Shown here piece after piece: positions 1,923-44,800 of a DNA stretch of 64,000 nt. The stretch lies in the sequence record MZ358387, one strand, 5' to 3'. A program made the translations under genes and the position numbers. Source of the stretch: Shigella virus Moo19. A model generated the notes under the pieces. That model did not search any database and was not told where the DNA came from. It saw nothing but the letters and a program-made list of their open reading frames with translations. Each line of letters begins with the position of its first letter. The stretch's first letter is position 1.

Positions 1923-2210
1923 ATGAATCTTACTAAGATACACGTTACTCCTACTAAGATGGTTAACTGTCCTATAACTAAAAAGTTATTTACTGTATCC
2001 AGTGACATACTCATTCTTGTACCAGACCTGGATAGCTTTCATGAAGTGAAAGGACAGGAGATGTTACTCAATAAGAAATGGGAAGTTCATCTACTTGAAC
2101 CAGGAAAGGAACTTAGGTGGCTGGGTATGTACAGTCCCTGGCATCTTAATACGGATAGCTACCGTCTTACCTTTACTGACCATATTGCTGTATATACTCC
2201 ACGCCCCTAG
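1923..2210 (+). CDS. Hypothetical early protein, paralog family member F (FHEVKGQEMLL, ends YTPRP)
   Basis: ORF track; tttcatgaagt nucleotide motif shared with members B and D. Confidence 0.5.
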   Translation: MNLTKIHVTPTKMVNCPITKKLFTVSSDILILVPDLDSFHEVKGQEMLLNKKWEVHLLEPGKELRWLGMYSPWHLNTDSYRLTFTDHIAVYTPRP

Positions 2211-2245
2211 CTCCTCAAACATAACTGCTTATAAAGAGTAACCTC

Positions 2246-2434
2246 ATGGATAATATTGCATTAAAAAACTACCGTACTGCTATTCAAGCCATAGAGCTTA
2301 TTAAAGCAGAGGTAGAAGTAACCTTTGGGTTACACGTAGGAACAGACCCAGAACCAGAAATAATGGTGGAAGCTTATAACATTGTTCTGGCTATACGTGC
2401 AGGTTATAACAGGCTATGCGAAGCATCTAAATAG
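2246..2434 (+). CDS. Hypothetical small protein (62 aa)
   Basis: ORF track only. Confidence 0.3.
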   Translation: MDNIALKNYRTAIQAIELIKAEVEVTFGLHVGTDPEPEIMVEAYNIVLAIRAGYNRLCEASK

Positions 2435-2480
2435 GAGGTATATAATTACCCTCTATCTAATATTTTTGCATGTCAAAATG

Positions 2481-2593
2481 GTGATAGCTACTTGTGATAG
2501 CTGTGGTGTGGCAGGGGCTACACCCTTACACGTTAACTACCCCCCCGGTATGTTGACTCATGGGTGTACTACCCTACCCCACCTTACACGTTA
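2481..2593. repeat. Intergenic direct repeats: gtgatagct x2 (2481, 2494) and ccttacacgtta x2 (2524, 2582), plus repeated ctaccc runs
   Basis: Read directly from sequence. Confidence 0.6.
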
Positions 2594-2595
2594 CA

Positions 2596-2608
2596 CATGC
2601 TCCGCATG
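2596..2608 (+). promoter_or_regulatory. Tri-loop hairpin catgc-TCC-gcatg (bottom strand GC-GGA-GC); candidate N4-type vRNAP early promoter hairpin
   Basis: Perfect 5-bp stem, 3-nt loop; same core as hairpins at 3584 and 7442; upstream of ORF 2652. Confidence 0.35.
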
Positions 2609-2651
2609 GTATGGACATGTCGTCCTTATCATTAACTATTGGAGCTATACA

Positions 2652-2972
2652 ATGACTACTACTGCTAACGTACGTATGACTGCTGGAACTTTACTGGGTA
2701 CTGTAAATGAAGCAGCTACTACTATTGCTGATACCTTTGGTACTGCAACTAAAGCTGTTGGTATGCTGAACTCATATGTCACTACTATGAGTGAGAAACA
2801 ACGTATTCGTACTAAATTGGAAATGCATACATTTACCAATAAATTAGCTGAAGAAACAGCTATGCAAGATACTATCCGTAAGAAAGCTATCGTAGAATTC
2901 TGCAAAGATGAAAAGAATGCTGAACTCTATAAAGCATCTTACGATGATGTAATGGCACTGTTATCTAAATAG
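2652..2972 (+). CDS. Hypothetical protein (106 aa)
   Basis: ORF track frame 2382-2972; ATG 2652 has ggag RBS 8 nt upstream; upstream part of track ORF is repeat-rich intergenic DNA. Confidence 0.4.
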   Translation: MTTTANVRMTAGTLLGTVNEAATTIADTFGTATKAVGMLNSYVTTMSEKQRIRTKLEMHTFTNKLAEETAMQDTIRKKAIVEFCKDEKNAELYKASYDDVMALLSK

Positions 2973-2981
2973 TAAAATAAC

Positions 2982-3010
2982 GGAAGACTCCTTGGAGTCT
3001 TCCTGTTTTA
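2982..3010 (+). terminator. Rho-independent terminator (9-bp stem ggaagactc/gagtcttcc, loop cttg, then tgtttta)
   Basis: Read directly. Confidence 0.6.
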
Positions 3011-3013
3011 AAG

Positions 3014-3032
3014 ATTAGATAGTCAATCTAAT
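3014..3032. promoter_or_regulatory. Palindrome attagat-agtca-atctaat containing 14-mer ttagatagtcaatc (second copy at 3529-3542)
   Basis: 7-bp inverted repeat read directly; lies just after a terminator and upstream of ORF 3063. Confidence 0.4.
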
Positions 3033-3062
3033 TTGAATAAATAGTTAAAAGAGAATCCTACT

Positions 3063-3209
3063 ATGAGCAAACTAAAAAACGCATTTATCCTGATTGTCAG
3101 TATCCTTGCACTTGTTACTTTGGTTTCCGTTCACATTGGAAAACCTCTGGTAAACACTGACTATGGTAATGGTCAAAAAGTAAAATCCATCCTGTTAGCG
3201 GATAAGTAA
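3063..3209 (+). CDS. Small putative membrane protein (48 aa, MSKLKNAFILIVSILALVTLVSV...)
   Basis: Hand-translated; hydrophobic N-terminal segment; below the 60-aa cutoff of the ORF track. Confidence 0.3.
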   Translation: MSKLKNAFILIVSILALVTLVSVHIGKPLVNTDYGNGQKVKSILLADK

Positions 3210-3276
3210 AAACCGCATCTAGAAACTGGGCTGTTCCACAGCTTACGGATACATTTCAACCAATTAGGAGGCATCC

Positions 3277-3492
3277 ATGAACGTAGAAAATATCCGTATA
3301 ATTGAGAATTGCTTTGGTGATAAACCAGTAGACCTCAGCAACGCAAGAAGGTCTACAGATGAAGAATACAGAGAGTTTTTATCCTTACTCGATGAATATC
3401 ATATGCAAGGGCATGTTGAATTACATGCCCATCTGCATAACTCAGGCTACTTCATGGATAAACTGGAAGCTGAGACAGGCTGTCCATTCTAA
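3277..3492 (+). CDS. Hypothetical protein (71 aa)
   Basis: ORF track; strong RBS aggagg upstream. Confidence 0.45.
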   Translation: MNVENIRIIENCFGDKPVDLSNARRSTDEEYREFLSLLDEYHMQGHVELHAHLHNSGYFMDKLEAETGCPF

Positions 3493-3499
3493 GTAAAGC

Positions 3500-3526
3500 A
3501 TTCCCTCTTAGGAGGGAATTAGCCAT
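3500..3526 (+). terminator. Terminator-like hairpin (attccctc-ttag-gagggaat)
   Basis: 8-bp inverted repeat read directly; weak T tract. Confidence 0.4.
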
Positions 3527-3528
3527 CT

Positions 3529-3547
3529 TTAGATAGTCAATCAAAAG
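3529..3547. promoter_or_regulatory. Second copy of 14-mer ttagatagtcaatc in an imperfect palindrome
   Basis: Identical 14-mer to 3015-3028. Confidence 0.4.
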
Positions 3548-3583
3548 TAGATTGTGATTCTACTTTAGTTCAACTTCAAAACC

Positions 3584-3600
3584 AAGACGCTCCGCGTCTT
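3584..3600 (+). promoter_or_regulatory. Tri-loop hairpin aagacgc-TCC-gcgtctt (7-bp stem); candidate vRNAP early promoter hairpin
   Basis: Perfect inverted repeat; GC-TCC-GC core shared with 2596 and 7442. Confidence 0.35.
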
Positions 3601-3705
3601 AAGGATGTATGAGTGCATCCAATCCTGTATGAAATCTTAGTCCTTTGTTTGGGTATGTTCACCGACGAGCGTACCCATAAATCACATTTATCTGGAGAGT
3701 ATAAA

Positions 3706-4089
3706 ATGTCTATTAAAACTTTTGGTCAAACTTTCGGTTCTGCTGTTGCTAACAAACCTGCTGCAACTGAACGTCCTAAAGCTAAATTCTGGCTGAACGT
3801 TGGCTATACAGCTAACGAAGGCACAGAAGAAGCTAAGTTCATCTCACTGCCTACTGGTATTCCACTGGATACTCAGGAGCATGTAAGCACTAAGTCCAGC
3901 AATGCTGACTTCCGTGCTATGCGTTGTGCTCAGAACGACCTGCTTGACCAGCTTCTGGCATTTGCAGAAGGTCTGGAACCAGGTGAAGAAGGTGTCATTC
4001 AACTTCAGGTTCAACTTCGTCGAGTCAAAGAAGAAGAAGCTGACATCCCAGCAGACGAGAATAAATATGCTCGTAAGCTGACTTTCTAA
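3706..4089 (+). CDS. Hypothetical early protein (127 aa)
   Basis: ORF track frame 3613-4089; ATG 3706 with ggagag RBS; followed by strong terminator. Confidence 0.5.
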
Positions 4090-4098
4090 TCACTAACT

Positions 4099-4127
4099 GG
4101 ACTCCCTTCGGGGAGTCCTTTTATTTT
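4099..4127 (+). terminator. Rho-independent terminator (ggactccc-ttcg-gggagtcc + T tract)
   Basis: Read directly. Confidence 0.7.
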
Positions 4128-4232
4128 AACTCAGCGATAAACTAAGTTTAACTTTTAGGAGCTTTTCGACGAAGAGTCACTAAAACTTAAACGTAAACAC
4201 AAGCAGATAACTTAGAGTAAGGAGTAATCAAG

Positions 4233-4418
4233 ATGCGTGTACTATGTAACCGTTATAATCCGACTAGGTTAATTAACATAATGGCTATGTATGGTAGCAA
4301 GATGGCTTATGATGCTCGTTGGCAGGTATCTGTAGAAGATAGAGATGGTCAGCATTATGACCACTACTTCACAGCTAAGCCAACTCGTAAACAAATCCGC
4401 AAACTTCACAAAGGATAA
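4233..4418 (+). CDS. Hypothetical protein (61 aa)
   Basis: ORF track; RBS taaggag upstream. Confidence 0.4.
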   Translation: MRVLCNRYNPTRLINIMAMYGSKMAYDARWQVSVEDRDGQHYDHYFTAKPTRKQIRKLHKG

Positions 4419-4422
4419 TGCT

Positions 4423-4575
4423 ATGAAGCTACTGGCAGAGATTCTATGTATTTTATTAATGATACTGCTGGTAGCTGCATTTCCGTGGCTATTAGCCGTA
4501 GGCGTAATTATTGGCATGTTCGCAGCCGGAGTGAATGATGCTCGTGGCAGAGATGAACCAGGTGGAGACGTATAA
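4423..4575 (+). CDS. Small membrane protein (50 aa, MKLLAEILCILLMILLVAAFPWLLAVGVIIGMF...)
   Basis: ORF track frame 4345-4575; ATG 4423 with aagga RBS; hydrophobic. Confidence 0.4.
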   Translation: MKLLAEILCILLMILLVAAFPWLLAVGVIIGMFAAGVNDARGRDEPGGDV

Positions 4576-4576
4576 C

Positions 4577-4657
4577 ATGGCCTATGTAATCATAGTTGTT
4601 GCGTGGTTAGCTGTTGGTGTATTCGTAGGTATGGCATTCGGGAGAATGGCTAAATGA
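4577..4657 (+). CDS. Possible tiny hydrophobic peptide (26 aa, MAYVIIVVAWLAVGVFVGMAFGRMAK)
   Basis: Hand-translated; tightly packed between neighbours; speculative. Confidence 0.2.
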   Translation: MAYVIIVVAWLAVGVFVGMAFGRMAK

Positions 4658-4845
4658 TTGAATTTAAGGTAGGCGATATAATTGAACCAATAGAGGGATT
4701 CCCACAGTGGAAAGGTATAACAATACTTGAGTGGAATCCTATTACTCGTGATGCCTCAGTTAAGCTTAAATCCGGTACTGTTATACATGGTTTTAATCTA
4801 GACCCTGACTATGGAGTTGAATTCAAATGCGTAAGTCCATCTTAA
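4654..4845 (+). CDS. Hypothetical protein (63 aa)
   Basis: ORF track; ggag RBS. Confidence 0.4.
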   Translation: MIEFKVGDIIEPIEGFPQWKGITILEWNPITRDASVKLKSGTVIHGFNLDPDYGVEFKCVSPS

Positions 4846-4989
4846 TGGGAACCAGAGAAGATGTTATTAAGCGTCGTGCTAAACAAGTTACTGCTCAATC
4901 AGTGCCTGTTACTGGTTATAGTAGAACATATAACAGTAAGCCTAAGCAGTATATCGTAACTTTCAATCATCCTTGTATTCAATAATAGT

Positions 4990-5017
4990 GGCTCCCATTA
5001 GGGAGCTTCTATTTTTT
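4990..5017 (+). terminator. Terminator (gctccc-atta-gggagc + T tract)
   Basis: Read directly. Confidence 0.5.
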
Positions 5018-5031
5018 ATTTAGAATAGTTA

Positions 5032-5062
5032 GTCCCGAAGGGACAATCTTACGAAGTAAGAT
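5032..5062 (+). promoter_or_regulatory. Two adjacent GAA tri-loop hairpins (gtccc-GAA-gggac; atcttac-GAA-gtaagat)
   Basis: Perfect inverted repeats read directly; function unknown. Confidence 0.3.
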
Positions 5063-5095
5063 TAGACATAGATAGATATAGGAGAAACTATTAAA

Positions 5096-5404
5096 TTGTT
5101 AAATGAAATCATCTGTATTCCACAGAATAAGGCTCGCATTGCAGATAGGAATATTCGTATTCATCTGCCAATGCCATTAGCTAACCCATTCAGTAAGTCT
5201 GAAAGACTGAACCAGGATGATGTAGATGTGGCTTATGAGGCATATCTGCGTAATCGTCTTATCTCAGGCGATAAGCTAATCACTGCTGAAATGGAAAAGA
5301 TTGCAGGCTTTGTCATGGACAAAACAGGCAAACCTGTAGGACTGATAGGCAATGAGCCAGAGGTAAATGTAATACGTAAACTTATTATGGAGGCTATTGG
5401 ATAA
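5096..5404 (+). CDS. Hypothetical protein; N-terminal half resembles DUF4326-type motif (LANPF...AYEAYL) seen in ORF 6220
   Basis: ORF track (non-ATG start at 5096 implied); start uncertain. Confidence 0.35.
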   Translation: MLNEIICIPQNKARIADRNIRIHLPMPLANPFSKSERLNQDDVDVAYEAYLRNRLISGDKLITAEMEKIAGFVMDKTGKPVGLIGNEPEVNVIRKLIMEAIG

Positions 5405-7441: not shown

Positions 7442-7460
7442 AGCTGCTCCGCAGCTTTTG
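7442..7460 (+). promoter_or_regulatory. Tri-loop hairpin agctgc-TCC-gcagct followed by TTTT; candidate vRNAP promoter hairpin or short terminator, 30 nt upstream of RNAP II genes
   Basis: Perfect 6-bp stem, TCC loop; same GC-TCC-GC core as 2596 and 3584. Confidence 0.35.
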
Positions 7461-7488: not shown

Positions 7489-8307
7489 ATGTACTCATCT
7501 ATTGAACATCAGAAGCAACTGGAAACTCTGTTTAACAAGAATCAACTAATTCCTCGTATGAGGAAAGAGTTCGAGGACTCCGAAGAAATCCAATTCACTA
7601 AGTATTTTGAGCATATTGGCATCGACCCCAAACTGGGTATTGATGCAATGGTGCAAATTGCTCTGCATAAACGTGCTGACATTCCTACTATGGTTGGCTC
7701 ACTCATGAGTCACAGTCAGGATGCTCAGTACATAGCAGACACTCTGCTTAAGATGGCAGAGCACGACTGCTTTGACTTCGACCCAAGTATCGATAAGTTC
7801 ATCGTCATCTATGAAATCAGTGATGATGTACAACTGGAACTGGAAGCATTCCAGTATCCACTGCCTATCGTCAGTGAACCGAGAGAGGTTAAAGATAACC
7901 GTGGCTCAGGTTACTGGAATACCAAAGGCAGTATCATCCTCAAGAAGAACCACCATGAAATGGATGTGTGTCTCGACCACATTAACCGTATGAACAATCA
8001 ACGACTCAGCATCAACTGGGACGTTGCCAAGTTCGTCAAAAACTCATGGGCTAACCTGGATAAACCTAAAGAAGGGGAATCCCGTCAGGACTTTCAGAAG
8101 CGTGTACGTGCATTCGAGAAATACGACCGTACAGCAAAAGACGTTATGGAACTGGTGACTAAAGAAGGTAACAACTTCTCACTTGACCATAAGTATGACA
8201 AGCGTGGACGCACCTACTCACAGGGCTACCACATTAACTATCAAGGTACTAGCTGGAATAAAGCTGTTATCGAGTTCGCTGATAAGGAGTTGGTAAACGA
8301 TGAGTAG
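7489..8307 (+). CDS. Phage RNA polymerase II small subunit (N4 gp15-like)
   Basis: 272 aa; lies upstream of a T7-like RNAP C-terminal-half homolog; N4-like organisation; strong RBS aggag. Confidence 0.55.
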   Translation: MYSSIEHQKQLETLFNKNQLIPRMRKEFEDSEEIQFTKYFEHIGIDPKLGIDAMVQIALHKRADIPTMVGSLMSHSQDAQYIADTLLKMAEHDCFDFDPSIDKFIVIYEISDDVQLELEAFQYPLPIVSEPREVKDNRGSGYWNTKGSIILKKNHHEMDVCLDHINRMNNQRLSINWDVAKFVKNSWANLDKPKEGESRQDFQKRVRAFEKYDRTAKDVMELVTKEGNNFSLDHKYDKRGRTYSQGYHINYQGTSWNKAVIEFADKELVNDE

Positions 8308-11161: not shown

Positions 11162-11190
11162 GACCTCCCTAAATGGGAGGTCTTTTTTTG
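11162..11190 (+). terminator. Rho-independent terminator (gacctccc-taaat-gggaggtc + T7)
   Basis: Read directly. Confidence 0.75.
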
Positions 11191-16708: not shown

Positions 16709-16736
16709 TAGCCCTGCAATGCAGGGCTATTTGTGG
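16709..16736 (+). terminator. Rho-independent terminator (tagccctgc-aat-gcagggcta + ttt)
   Basis: Read directly. Confidence 0.6.
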
Positions 16737-16746
16737 AAGTTCCTTC
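16731..16746 (+). repeat. 16-mer ttgtggaagttccttc (copy 1), near-palindromic core ggaagttcc
   Basis: Identical 16-mer at 17055-17070. Confidence 0.6.
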
Positions 16747-17054: not shown

Positions 17055-17070
17055 TTGTGGAAGTTCCTTC
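17055..17070 (+). repeat. 16-mer ttgtggaagttccttc (copy 2)
   Basis: Identical to 16731-16746. Confidence 0.6.
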
Positions 17071-19307: not shown

Positions 19308-19334
19308 AGACCTCCTACGGGAGGTCTTTTTTTG
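19308..19334 (+). terminator. Rho-independent terminator (agacctcc-tacg-ggaggtct + T7)
   Basis: Read directly. Confidence 0.75.
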
Positions 19335-37484: not shown

Positions 37485-37566
37485 GGGGGAGTAGTCAAGC
37501 GGTCGAAGACGGCAGACTGTAAATCTGTTATCCCACACGGTAGTTCGAATCTACCCTCCCCCACCA
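37485..37566 (+). tRNA. tRNA-Tyr (anticodon GTA), 10-nt variable region, CCA encoded
   Basis: Hand-folded cloverleaf: acceptor GGGGGAG/CTCCCCC, T-loop TTCGAAT, anticodon loop CTGTAAA. Confidence 0.65.
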
Positions 37567-37567
37567 C

Positions 37568-37642
37568 GGTAAGTTAGCTAATTGGTGAAGCGGCTGACTG
37601 TTAATCAGTGATAGAGTGGTTCGAGTCCACTACTTACCGCCA
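37568..37642 (+). tRNA. tRNA-Asn (anticodon GTT), CCA encoded
   Basis: Hand-folded: acceptor GGTAAGT/ACTTACC, T-loop TTCGAGT, anticodon loop CTGTTAA. Confidence 0.7.
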
Positions 37643-37647
37643 CATTA

Positions 37648-37724
37648 CGGAGTTTAGCTCAGTCTGGTAGAGCATCTGCTTTGGGAGCAGAGGGTCGTAG
37701 GTTCGAGTCCTGCAATTCCGACCA
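37648..37724 (+). tRNA. tRNA-Pro (anticodon TGG), CCA encoded
   Basis: Hand-folded: acceptor CGGAGTT/AATTCCG, D-arm GCTCAGTCTGGTAGAGC, anticodon TGG. Confidence 0.7.
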
Positions 37725-37730
37725 AACAAT

Positions 37731-37806
37731 TAGGGGTTAGTTCAGTTGGTAGAACATCGGACTTTGATTCCGAATGTCACAGGTTCGAATCCTGTACCCC
37801 TTGCCA
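37731..37806 (+). tRNA. tRNA-Gln (anticodon TTG), CCA encoded; position 1-72 is T-T (unpaired)
   Basis: Hand-folded: D-arm GTTCAGTTGGTAGAAC, anticodon loop CTTTGAT, T-loop TTCGAAT. Confidence 0.6.
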
Positions 37807-41800: not shown

Positions 41801-44800
41801 CAAACTCAATATTGTTAGCACCCATCAACGTATCGAACTTCTGTTGAGCATAGTAACGGTCAGCAGGGTTAGTGCTGTTCGGGTCTGCCATGAAGTCTTC
41901 TACTTTCAGGTTCTTGGTAACGTGAGTGTAATACTCCTGAGCACGAGCCAGAGCAGCAGGATGAATTGCAGCCTCAGTTGCTAGTGCAGCAACAATGTTG
42001 GTGAACAGACGACGTTCTTGCATGTTCATAGTAAAACCATGCCCCTGAACATCACGAGTTACCTTAACTGCATTCACTACTGCGTCAGAGAATTTACCCT
42101 TACGCATATGTTGCTGTACCGGGTCATTACCCAGGTAGTTCGTAATGAGACGGTCAAAGGTTTGACCCAGTGAAGTAAGACGGTCATTGTTGCCATAAGC
42201 AGTGCTATGGAACAGGGTAGCCTCAGCAGTAACCGGAGCAACCGGAGGCTGTGAACGCATCACTACAGCAGAGTTAAACAGCAGACCGGAGAACATATCT
42301 TCACCGTAAGCAGGGGCTTTCTTACGACCAAAAATGAGGCGTTTAATTGCTTCATAAACATCTTTAACCATCCTGGTAAGAGCAGTGGTTTTCTTCTGCT
42401 TCTTAATCAGTTCATGGTTGGTTAAGCCCCATGCCATGTACTCATTCAGTGCAGCAGCTTTAGCCATTGCTGGGTCAATGAAACCGTTGGACAGATGACC
42501 ATTGATAGTATCCAGTGCATCAGCGTAAGCCTCACGCATAGCCGGAGTATCTTTGGATACATCCAGACTACGGAACTGTTCCATCAGATTCTCGATGTTC
42601 TGTACAGCTTCATTGGTCTGGCCTTGATAGTGGTCAAGTACAGTCTCAAAAGTAGAAGCATGAACCAGTTCATGAATCAAGGTTTCCATTGATGGGCTAA
42701 CCAGGTAGACAGTCTTATCTGCAAAGTTAGTCCAACCATAGATATTACCTGCATTTGCAGCTTCAATATCTTCTGGAGCAGGACGCTCTACGTTACGTTC
42801 CATTGCATACTGGTCAATCTGGTTCACGTTACCGTAAACAACCTTGTAGCCTTTAGCAGCCAGTGACTTCTGAATCTCATTCAGTACAGCAGCCTGTTCA
42901 ACAGGAAGGTTGGACTCTTTAGCCAGTTTGTTAATAGCAGTCTGAGACAGCACACGAACACCAGACTTCAGAGCACGGCCTACAGTATCAAACTTATTAG
43001 TATCGGCTACTGGAGTCTTCTCAGCTTTACGAGCCTCTTTACGAGCCTGCAATTCAGCATCGAATAGCTCATTCAGTTTTGCTACTTGCTGGTCAACAGT
43101 CAGACCATCCAGAGAGATATTACCGTTGTTCACATAAGGGGAACCAACAGCAGCCATCTGGTCAACAGTAGTCTGTACCTGGTTCATTACCTTGTGACGG
43201 ATATCGACACCCAGAGCAATGTTACGCAGGTTACGCTCAATAAGATTAACACCTGCTTTCTCAATCATATCAATCTTATACTGCCTGTCACCATCAACAC
43301 GACTGATATGAGAAAGTTGTTCAAAATCCAAAGCAGAACGGGCAATACTATCAATTGCTTCATCTGATAACTTATTGAAATCTACATTTTTTACAAACTT
43401 AGAGAAGGAGTCATACACATTCTTGATAGGGTTACCCTGCCATGAAGTGTATACAGCTTCGTTAGCCTTACGGCTTGCATCAGTGATGTCATTGATACCG
43501 ATGTTCATACCATCAAAGATTTTGAGAGTATTTTTCGGTGCACCTTTCATAATAGAAAGGGTCTGCATCATCATGCCGTCACCAGTACCAATCGTCATGA
43601 AAGGAATACCAGCAACACCAGCTTGTGACGGTGCATAGATGCTCATTGGCACACGCATACGGTCATCAAAGTTGGTAGCCAGAACCTGGTTAGCAACATC
43701 AGTATTCTCAGAACCAGCAATGTAGAAAGTCTGGGAACCAGTCTCAATCATTGGAGCTAAGTCAGACAGTGAAGCCTGAATATCGTTAAGCTCTTTCTGA
43801 GTTAAGAAGTCACCCTTCTTCCAGTTAGGGTCTTTTTCTTTTTCTGCCAGCTTCTCCTGGACACGTTGCTGGAACATGTCTTGCAGAACCAGAGACTGAA
43901 TCTGGGTAGCTTTCTGAAGCTGTTCAGTGGAGTGCATCAGCCCTTCACCAACAGTATTCTGAATACCCTGTCTCATTGGTTCAACGAAAAAGTGCAGCAT
44001 GTTCTCTTGCAGAGACTTCAGTTGCTCACCTTTGACAGTGAACTTCTGAGGGTCAATCTTGCCAGACATAGCAGTACCAGTGTCTTCAAGAGACAGTTTA
44101 CCTTTACGCATAACTGGAACAGTACCAGTCAATGCTTTCATGTCTTCAATGAAACGACCGAGCATAGCCTCAGCATCGGCCTCAGATGCTGCCTGCTTGC
44201 CGAACATTGCCATAGCCGGGGAAATGTCCGGGTTCTGTGCACGGGCTTGCAGAACGTCGCTGAAGCGTTCGTAGATGGCATCAGTAATTGCACTCACCAT
44301 CTTGCCTGCAATACCACGAGCACCGGAACCATAAATGGTAATGGTCAGTGGGTTCTTGGCAATGCCACGTTTCAGTTCGAGGTTGCCTTCTTCATTGATG
44401 TTATAGTCAGGAATGAACAAGTCCATCAGAGAGGACAGATGATTCATCTGAGTATTAACAGCCGGGTTATTGGCATAGGTATTTCGCAGGTTAGTCAGTG
44501 CAGCTTTCAGACCGTTAGTGGATGCTTCGTACAGGTCAACGCTATCGTCAATAGAACGATGTTCGTTCATCGTCTTACCAGCACGACCAAAGAATAGACC
44601 ACCCTTAGCAGTATTCTGTACCCATTCTTTGGTGAACTTACCACCAGTCATCAGCATCATTGCGTTAATCGGACCGTTGGTTACACCATCAGCCTCAACG
44701 TACAGTGGAGTGTTGAACTTAGACTTGTCTTCAGCATTCAGGTAACGGGCATACTCCATCAGAGCCATGAGAGCTACGAAGGATTTATCACCACCCAATG

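Follow-up and report, generated by a model that had tools for sequence, protein, structure and literature searches.

What does a 14-nucleotide word do twice, letter for letter, behind two hairpins near the left end of a phage genome? In the 64,000-nucleotide stretch of Shigella virus Moo19 DNA analysed here (record MZ358387; 'the window' refers hereafter to this whole stretch), the 14-mer TTAGATAGTCAATC stands at positions 3015-3028 and 3529-3542, exact and on the plus strand both times. The original prediction, made from the letters alone, had placed each copy after a terminator hairpin, within an inverted repeat and at the start of a transcription unit, and proposed operator sites for a dimeric regulator or a conserved promoter element. 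We find in each 14-mer a copy of an oriented cis-signal that N4-like phages conserve; its composite unit consists of a GC-rich hairpin with a 4-nt loop, a spacer of ~9-13 nt and the word (T)TAGATAG (often TAGATAGATAG; 'the box' hereafter), usually followed by an AT-rich hairpin bearing the word YCTACTT. As to its role, we tentatively prefer (as a possibility short of an even chance) a hairpin-coupled, promoter-type restart signal for the phage middle RNA polymerase, RNAPII.

By megablast the window belongs to the G7C group of N4-like coliphages (Gamaleyavirus, Schitoviridae), with ~80-85% identity to G7C, pSb-1, Jgk1 and others. Phages of the N4 type employ three polymerases: a virion RNA polymerase (RNAP) acting on hairpin promoters, RNAPII with gp2 (and, on genetic grounds, gp1) for middle transcription, and the RNAP of the host for late transcription (PMC4496689). 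Relatives without a name below carry the handles of our comparison set (e.g., L050).

The 14-mer pair and its hairpins

The features immediately concerned are:

2982-3003, plus strand: terminator hairpin of gp1 (t1), GGAAGACTCC-TT-GGAGTCTTCC, then TGTTTTAAAGA; terminator-like on both strands in our scan
3014-3032: weak AT-only inverted repeat ATTAGAT-AGTCA-ATCTAAT (7-bp stem, 5-nt loop; dG -3.7 kcal/mol, z -2.1)
3015-3028, plus strand: 14-mer copy 1 (site 1), core TTAGATAG at 3015-3022; the universal post-gp1 box, ~506 nt from the left end; position weight matrix (PWM) score 18.0
3500-3519, plus strand: hairpin after gp1.2, ATTCCCTC-TTAG-GAGGGAAT, of the same sequence type as the t1 hairpin of L050
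3529-3542, plus strand: 14-mer copy 2 (site 2), core at 3529-3536; a lineage-specific second box, common to G7C only; PWM score 17.5
3544-3566, plus strand: hairpin AAAGTAGA-TTGTGAT-TCTACTTT, bearing the second conserved word YCTACTT at 3559-3565
3564-3574, plus strand: degenerate partial box TTTAGTTCAAC, which (read from the sequences) keeps the family-consensus 3' half GTTCAAC

Both copies follow a GC-rich hairpin, at gaps of 11 nt (copy 1) and 9 nt (copy 2), and a homologous hairpin stands after gp1 in every relative compared. Calling both hairpins terminators needs qualifying: only the first has a plus-strand T-run; the second continues into TAGCCATCT without one, and the scan calls it terminator-like on the minus strand only. 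Similarly, the inverted repeat is real but weak at site 1, whereas at site 2 the 14-mer pairs GAT/ATC only; what is stable there is the hairpin next to it, at 3544-3566 (a homologue of AAAGTAGATAacTATCTACTTT of SP5M, IME11 and N4), and not the 14-mer itself.

The identity between the copies is exactly 14 nt long, the flanks diverging at once on either side, and no further match to TTAGATAGTCAATC exists in the window at up to two mismatches. By itself the pair is only marginally non-random: two or more matches at this stringency were obtained in 9/100 shuffles, at three mismatches 7 matches were observed against 7.0 expected, and the real window holds several further exact 14-mer pairs within 600 nt. 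The pair could have no function of its own, being a chance repeat or the neutral scar of the insertion of a gp1.1-gp1.2 cassette; in favour of this stand the 11.5% of Markov-randomised windows in which one or more exact 14-mers recur within 600 nt, together with the IMG/VR database, in which the exact 14-mer occurs singly on at least 120 unrelated viral contigs, with no other N4-like contig among the matches listed. The significance of the pair stems instead from its 8-nt core, which is conserved across lineages.

A conserved box behind a hairpin

Shared words were counted in the 110 nt past the gp1 stop codon of 13 lineage representatives, whose gp1 identity to that of the window goes down to ~29%. 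GATAG was the most shared 5-mer, present in 13/13 lineages (background: 0.12 per 110 nt), and TAGATAG was found in nine of the 13 (background: 0.033); the complement CTATC was met in 2/13, which is the background level. The second word, CTACTT (in TATCTACTTTA or CTCTACTT), stands 15-50 nt further on in 7/13 lineages, against a background of 0.059. The expectation that the motif would occur at homologous positions in relatives is thus borne out for the GATAG core: the exact 14-mer is private to this genome and its 3' half varies among the relatives, but the core (T)TAGATAG is retained directly 3' of the homologous hairpins.

Strand and spacing both constrain the association with hairpins. Of the 107 plus-strand copies of AGATAG, 25 have a GC hairpin (8 bp or longer) whose end lies 7-15 nt upstream, as does a single one of the 66 minus-strand copies (random positions: 2.3%), and in all 19 cross-lineage cases the distance from the 3' end of the hairpin (9-bp, GC-rich) to the start of the box is 9-13 nt. 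This fixed strand and spacing suggest that one machine, having polarity, reads hairpin and box jointly. Many of the box-associated hairpins lack a U-tract, and would therefore be poor simple terminators. The box itself is often repeated in tandem every 4 nt (TAGATAGATAGATAG). The potential for AT-rich hairpins, at the box or immediately past it, is significant overall (Stouffer z -5.7), although the box lies within the stem in only about half of the lineages; palindromes comparable to that of site 1, in another register, likewise occur in about half.

The unit reaches beyond the coliphages. It was found in Pseudomonas phage inbricus and Achromobacter phage Axy13, where the flanks are unalignable and the host differs, and such persistence across hosts suggests that the reader is encoded by the phage. 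LUZ7 (54% GC, of another subfamily, and without gp1 and gp2) contains the unit once, as GAGCCGCCC-GTAA-GGGCGGTTC, 9 nt and TAGATAGTCA, directly upstream of the gene for the RNAPII small subunit. Two more TAGATAG copies of LUZ7 (L179) lie at 42762 and 42884 in the orf69-orf70 intergenic region, from which abundant small late RNAs were described (ONT-cappable-seq study); one of them falls, perhaps coincidentally, in the spacer of the sigma-70-like promoter TTGACT-N17-CATAGT.

An operator for a dimeric regulator does not agree with this pattern. The core is asymmetric and strand-specific (GATAG against CTATC, above), and we met no conserved dyad, with site 1 alone showing the symmetry; among relatives, the second arm either lies in another register (TTAGAT/ATCTAA, GATAGTT/AACTATC, TAGATA/TATCTA) or is missing. 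Moreover, the tandem repeats with their 4-nt period are ill-suited to a dyad-symmetric site.

A third copy was located further to the right:

5069-5079, plus strand: third box TAGATAGATAT, after a terminator (4995-5012) and twin GAA-loop hairpins (5032-5063); abuts the ribosome-binding site (RBS) of a gp9-like gene

This box is conserved in L005, L006, L008 and L019, and in L006 and L019 it directly abuts the RBS/start codon of the next gene. The two GAA-triloop hairpins (GTCCC-GAA-GGGAC and ATCTTAC-GAA-GTAAGAT; joint fold against shuffles z -3.9) have loops of the virion-RNAP type, albeit on the strand that would direct leftward transcription. Scanned with the weight matrix, the window contains two strong matches (18.0 and 17.5; the next scores 11.8) and the N4 genome three. 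In the rightward-transcribed half, the hexamer TAGATA/TATCTA is weakly enriched between genes, being intergenic in 5 of 11 cases in N4 and 4 of 9 in the window, intergenic DNA making up 9.3% of the sequence. A genome-wide repeat was discarded, as no related word is over-represented and only two strong PWM matches exist.

Cassettes that run from box to hairpin

The two 14-mers bracket a pair of small genes:

3029-3528, plus strand: gp1.1-gp1.2 accessory cassette, comprising gp1.1, a hairpin at 3230-3242, gp1.2 and the hairpin at 3500-3519

In alignments with 20 relatives the homology blocks break off at the boxes: of the left blocks, eight stop at 3022 (the final base of TTAGATAG), the cassette block of G7C spans 3016-3537, and the right block of L051 begins at 3530. 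L050 and L051 (gp1 98% identical) lack gp1.1-gp1.2 altogether and show the order hairpin, two tandem boxes, YCTACTT hairpin and P2 (the gp2 promoter, see below); E20, ZQ2, St11Ph5, KKP 3715 and pSb-1 have the box after gp1 only and none at site 2. Considering these breaks and the absence of the cassette from relatives, the 14-mers appear to be the ends of a swappable box-to-hairpin cassette. The coincidence of the hairpin-box unit with mosaic breakpoints is as plain in our data as its strand-specificity, its spacing and its deep conservation.

The two copies also resemble each other more than the family. While the family consensus TTAGATAGTTCAAC is found in G7C site 2, pSb-1 site 1 and L005 (N4 has CGATAGTTCAAT), both copies of the window share the derived 3' half GTCAATC, which points to a recent duplication, recombination or conversion. 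The hairpins are of mixed types, with that of site 2 resembling t1 of L050 and the window's own t1 resembling that of SP5M. That the 14-mers are cassette ends, and owe their identity to recent recombination or conversion, is well supported by these alignments. A simple target-site duplication is not supported, since the 'empty' relatives L050 and L051 have other terminator and box variants. Box-to-hairpin cassettes explain the exchange of small genes in the hypervariable gp1-gp2 interval of these therapeutic-candidate phages.

The shared derived half and the breakpoints in the boxes are also what a functionless recombination junction would show. Nevertheless, a scar fails to explain a core kept in 13/13 lineages under strand and spacing constraints, between unalignable flanks and in different hosts, and leaves the conserved third copy at 5069 unexplained. 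For the core, the absence of function is largely refuted, and we regard it as very improbable.

The genome's left end

The pair lies ~0.5-1 kb to the right of the genome's left end. The records of G7C, Mimir124, SP5M and N4 start at window positions ~2508-2516, which places the physical left end inside the window and implies a circularly permuted or concatemeric source assembly in which the ~404-bp terminal repeat has collapsed into a single copy. The terminus itself, TGGTGTGGCAGGGGCTACACCC at ~2504-2525, equals position 1 of the N4, G7C and Mimir124 records. In Mimir124, Axy13 and two IMG/VR genomes the terminal repeat measures ~403-404 bp and ends inside gp1, ~100 nt before the box; in the window it extends to ~2910, again inside gp1. 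The box is hence no terminal-repeat boundary marker in the strict sense, the repeat ending ~100 nt upstream of it.

The genes and words of this region are:

2453-2460, minus strand: inverted box copy (CTATCTAA on the plus strand), ~50 nt before the left terminus
2483-2500, plus strand: two GATAGCT words just upstream of the left terminus (~2508), kept as GTGATAGCTA in relatives
2652-2972: gp1, by homology; Pfam tag Phage_N4_Gp1 (precomputed annotation)
3063-3209: gp1.1, a 48-aa hydrophobic protein, by homology
3277-3492: gp1.2, by homology
3706-4089: gp2, the single-stranded DNA (ssDNA)-binding cofactor of the middle polymerase RNAPII, by homology
7489-8307: RNAPII small subunit, by homology

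In relatives, the box at the place of the 2453-2460 copy stands in plus orientation. The two GATAGCT words belong to a block, TTTTTGCATGTCAAAATGGTGATAGCTA(CTTGTGATAGCT) at 2462-2502, that directly precedes the left terminus. The majority of G7C- and N4-like relatives possess this block, which is a candidate sequence for end recognition (packaging). Where the rightward-transcribed region ends, four clustered tRNA genes (Tyr-GTA, Asn-GTT, Pro-TGG, Gln-TTG) occupy 37485-37806.

Several other intergenic words recur. The word CTTTTCGACGAAG(A/G)G is found between gp2 and gp3 in the window (4148-4166), in N4 (L016; 1141-1160) and in L006, within diverged surroundings. The exact 16-mer TTGTGGAAGTTCCTTC occurs at 16731-16746 and 17055-17070, 324 nt apart in two intergenic gaps of the middle region, of which the first directly follows a terminator hairpin; within the 16-mer stands GGAAG-TTC-CTTCC, a hairpin whose 3-nt TTC loop resembles that of N4 P1, and the two copies may represent hairpin promoters of the middle region. 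Two middle-region terminators (11175-11190 and 19319-19334) have the 16-mer GGGAGGTCTTTTTTTG in common, and after the former comes TTATCTACTTTGG (11196), which reproduces the second conserved block exactly.

The crowding of non-coding GATAG words around the left end (the two GATAGCT, the box ~50 nt upstream, the post-gp1 box, and further ones at ~1 kb and ~2.6 kb) could reflect a binding site, operator or architectural, for a phage DNA-binding protein that would regulate gp1, gp2 and the early genes, or melt the DNA as the 'protein X' proposed for middle transcription of N4. Such a site would tolerate that the orientation of the element relative to the genes differs between genera better than a directional promoter would, and inverted-repeat partners are indeed common (the z of -5.7 given above for hairpin potential downstream of the box). 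Furthermore, the N4 model lacks a protein that recognises and melts middle promoters, and gp1, always beside the box, is genetically implicated. We nonetheless consider it a rather unlikely explanation: a duplex-binding protein has no obvious need for a strand-specific core at a fixed distance from a hairpin, as found at the universal site, tandem copies at 4-nt spacing cannot each hold a dimer, and the dyad varies in register or is absent (e.g., G7C site 1, L022). Searched against Pfam and PHROGs, gp1, gp1.1, gp1.2 and gp2 matched families of unknown function only, and no DNA-binding family. The structural model of gp1 (mean pLDDT 68.5, i.e. low confidence) consists of a single very long helix (residues 4-83) and a short C-terminal helix, without a ribbon-helix-helix or helix-turn-helix fold; it suggests a coiled coil more than a globular fold for DNA binding. 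A role of gp1 as a classical DNA-binding regulator thus found no support here.

Possible polymerase readers of the box

Hairpin promoters of the virion RNAP are recognisable in the window and lie apart from the boxes:

2596-2608, 3230-3242, 3584-3600 and 7442-7456: virion-RNAP-type early promoter hairpins with a TCC loop; the only TCC-loop hairpins in the window, all intergenic
3584-3600, plus strand: virion-RNAP early promoter P2, AAGACGC-TCC-GCGTCTT, then AAGGATG; the true gp2 promoter, separate from the box (N4 P2, for comparison: AGAAGC-TCC-GCTTCT TTTGGATG)

The four stand upstream of gp1, gp1.2, gp2 and the RNAPII small-subunit gene, match N4 P1, P2 and P3, and consist of a 5-7-bp stem with TCC in the coding-strand loop, followed by a TTATGGATG-like start region. 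The box is not a promoter of this class. Site 1 offers an AT-only stem with a 5-nt AGTCA loop, the 14-mer of site 2 pairs over 3 bp, and the sequences 3' of the 14-mers (TAATTTGAAT and AAAAGTAGAT) lack a TTATGGATG-like G-start region ~11 nt from the loop centre. A scan of 2000-5000 for sigma-70 -35/-10 pairs (16-18-nt spacing) found no site at or beside either 14-mer, and fewer sites than in shuffles; Rfam covariance models gave no match in 2300-5300 at E values up to 1. Likeness to IHF sites, DnaA boxes or gyrase sites, checked by eye, does not fit. A role at the RNA level through GGAGATAG leaders was also set aside (weak enrichment, 18/251 genes; none in the window).

Of the two first proposals, it is thus the conserved promoter element that keeps its place: the element is conserved, of a regulatory type and no coincidence, and a promoter is the leading reading on the sequence evidence. 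Its supposed position at the start of two transcription units holds for site 1, which precedes gp1.1 (a gene without its own virion-RNAP promoter), but not for site 2, which precedes the true gp2 promoter P2 and, as noted, is shared with G7C only, being absent from E20, ZQ2, St11Ph5, KKP 3715 and pSb-1.

We reason that a phage-encoded T7-like RNA polymerase, most likely RNAPII with its ssDNA-binding cofactor gp2, may read the unit as a restart signal. The hairpin that closes the upstream early unit would also present the DNA for initiation in or beside the AT-rich box, and initiation there would send transcription rightward into the genes further on, where a virion-RNAP hairpin promoter is lacking. 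Accessory cassettes would run from box to hairpin, so that the boxes become places of cassette recombination, and one such event could have left the two identical copies around gp1.1-gp1.2 in this genome. Both the identity of the polymerase and initiation (rather than pausing) at the box are inferred.

Several observations are in line with such a promoter. Genes that have no virion-RNAP hairpin of their own (gp1.1, the gp9-like gene and SP5M gene 02) stand behind a box, and the box of site 3 abuts an RBS, which suits a promoter and not a terminator. The core TTAGATAG(T), with 8-9 nt and 75-78% AT, agrees with the short AT-rich core (-7 to +2) of the N4 RNAPII promoter, and there are two conserved blocks (the GATAG box and YCTACTT) with T residues available, which may or may not correspond to the two motifs and the T start described for N4. 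With 8-9-bp stems and a 4-nt loop, the hairpins at 2982-3003 and 3500-3519, like those of relatives, are of the LUZ7 type (stem of at least 6 bp, loop of 3-4 nt), and the box spans +9 to +20 after the stem.

A number of facts weigh against a promoter for RNAPII. Against the many copies expected ahead of middle operons across the left half of the genome stand two strong matches in the window and three in N4, and the bulk of the middle region (8-35 kb) is without a strong match, although N4 is said to have many middle promoters. The strong N4 copies (535 and 1108) are oriented oppositely to the genes, and in plus orientation only a degenerate GATAGTT follows t1; one model of a directional promoter cannot serve both genera. 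The opposite strand reads (A/G)ACTATCTAA, similar to the T7-group core ACTATAG with T at +1, and by this token the boxes of the window would face leftward. Site 2 lies upstream of a good virion-RNAP promoter and is missing from most relatives, and the LUZ7 box site may or may not be one of the four mapped middle promoters. Initiation at the box in this phage group is putative.

The minus-strand likeness could be taken at face value. A leftward promoter, (G/A)ACTATCT(+1)AA, with a T7-like core and a T start, would let RNAPII make a ~45-nt RNA antisense to the 3' end of gp1 and ending in the bidirectional hairpin, either as a regulatory RNA or to prime DNA synthesis leftward across the terminal repeat. 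Intergenic CTATCT copies share T-(G/T/A)-A-(A/T)-CTATCT-A, which the copies within open reading frames lack; the conserved span, -8 to +2 on a T7 core ACTAT, matches the published -7 to +2 and T start; and in N4 each of t1, t2 and t3 is followed by the same word on the plus strand, with rightward genes further on. In L005, L019, L022 and L050 an A-tract precedes the hairpin but no T-tract follows, so that it would terminate leftward transcription only, while our scan flags both window hairpins as minus-strand terminators. Still, this seems quite improbable, as there are no leftward genes there, early and middle transcription of LUZ7 is almost exclusively on the Watson strand (very short RNAs could escape), the T7 likeness rests on 5 nt, and the boxes that precede promoterless genes would go unexplained.

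The box might, conversely, stop or hold a polymerase. As a pause or termination signal for the virion RNAP or RNAPII, akin to T7 class II, it would catch polymerases that pass the hairpin. Its shortness, its strict orientation, its frequent reiteration and its constant place 9-13 nt past a hairpin that frequently lacks a U-tract would fit such a role, and its low copy number suits a special-purpose stop better than a general promoter. The class II signals of T7 are 7-nt and orientation-dependent, and act 6-8 nt downstream, with one following the class I hairpin in rrnB T1 and another at the T7 concatemer junction; positions 156-170 of T7, on the border of the 160-bp terminal repeat, read CCCTATCTGTTACAG, and the N4-type box shares CTATCT on the opposite strand, ~100 nt beyond the terminal repeat. 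On the other hand, the T7 motif ATCTGTT itself is absent (the box reads TTAGATAG on the plus and CTATCTAA on the minus strand), and since the shared CTATCT lies on the strand opposite to rightward transcription, the likeness is not directly transferable. No U-run follows site 2 and only ATTT follows site 1; at site 3, in L006 and in L019, where the box abuts the RBS or start codon, a terminator would block that gene; and the terminator after gp2 (4099-4118) has no box. A pause signal is, in our judgement, a rather unlikely role.

By analogy with the concatemer-junction signal of T7, the post-gp1 unit could also be a genome-end checkpoint, at which a polymerase or a box-bound protein stalls. 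According to a review, the first 500 bp of N4 DNA enter the cell before transcription-driven entry takes over, and in the window, N4, Mimir124 and Axy13 the universal box sits at ~506-526 bp, counted from the left end, a coincidence worth noting. The stall would define this entry step, set the place of the imprecise right-end cut by which packaging produces the terminal repeat, or do both, and the same end-processing system would include the GATAG words that just precede the left terminus. We think a checkpoint improbable.

Comparison with known systems

N4 is the model system for phage-encoded RNA polymerases, yet in 2015 a review described how RNAPII finds its promoters as work still in progress, and until 2022 middle promoters were called "impossible to identify" in relatives of LUZ7. 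In this context the box provides a concrete, mutable target for two questions, namely promoter finding by RNAPII and the ~500 bp limit of the first entry step. Its usefulness lies in a fixed strand and hairpin spacing, in its conservation from coliphages to Pseudomonas and Achromobacter phages, and in its place beside gp1, which is genetically tied to middle transcription; should it prove only a redundant accessory of terminators, the result would be modest. Full-text literature on the motif together with N4-like phages yielded no description of it; the primary N4 middle-promoter papers were outside this coverage, and an earlier description is possible.

The closest counterparts are the middle promoters of LUZ7, mapped by ONT-cappable-seq as GC-rich hairpins (stem of at least 6 bp, loop of 3-4 nt) ~15 bp upstream of where transcription starts (PMC9163698). 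They share with the box an N4-like phage, a hairpin at a fixed short distance and, as proposed for the box, the heterodimeric T7-like RNAPII as reader, and LUZ7 carries the one hairpin-9 nt-TAGATAGTCA unit; they differ in that four were found, starting at G, with no TAGATAG consensus reported, and in that LUZ7 uses Drc and is without gp1 and gp2.

The RNAPII promoters of N4 (Abravaya and Rothman-Denes 1990, as rendered in PMC4496689 and PMC9163698) are described as minimal and AT-rich, from -7 to +2 (PMC4496689), with a start at T and two consensus motifs (PMC9163698). As far as these accounts go, the likeness consists of a short AT-rich element (box core of 8-9 nt, 75% AT), a putative T start, two blocks that may answer to the two motifs (the YCTACTT block being the second here), a location in the rightward left half of the genome and a presumed need for gp2 and possibly gp1. 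The differences, on sequences compared by description, are that N4 is said to have many such promoters against 2-3 strong box copies per genome, and that the N4 copies of the box face the opposite way.

With the virion-RNAP promoters P1-P3 of N4 the unit shares the early region, the hairpin character and DNA secondary structure as a recognition element. Those promoters have 5-7-bp GC stems, a 3-nt TCC/TTC loop and a TTATGGATG-type start, whereas the hairpins of the box have 4-nt loops or are AT-only.

The class II signal of T7 (ATCTGTT) is likewise a short oriented signal for a T7-like polymerase, may follow a class I hairpin (rrnB T1) and has CTATCT in common with the box, which displays the same dependence on orientation (GATAG 13/13 against CTATC 2/13; hairpins at 25/107 against 1/66). 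It is set apart by its defining 7-mer, which the box lacks, by the shared bases being on the other strand, and by the position of the box ~100 nt past the repeat, in 2-3 copies.

Finally, the hairpin-box unit is reminiscent of the PeSL elements of T4-type phages, in which a stem-loop and a promoter-like word flank small accessory genes in a hyperplastic early region, at recombination breakpoints. The PeSL elements belong to another phage family, serve the host sigma-70 polymerase and have another sequence, and the promoter role of the box is putative; the arrangement, a hairpin and an oriented word at the borders of exchangeable small genes, is alike in both.

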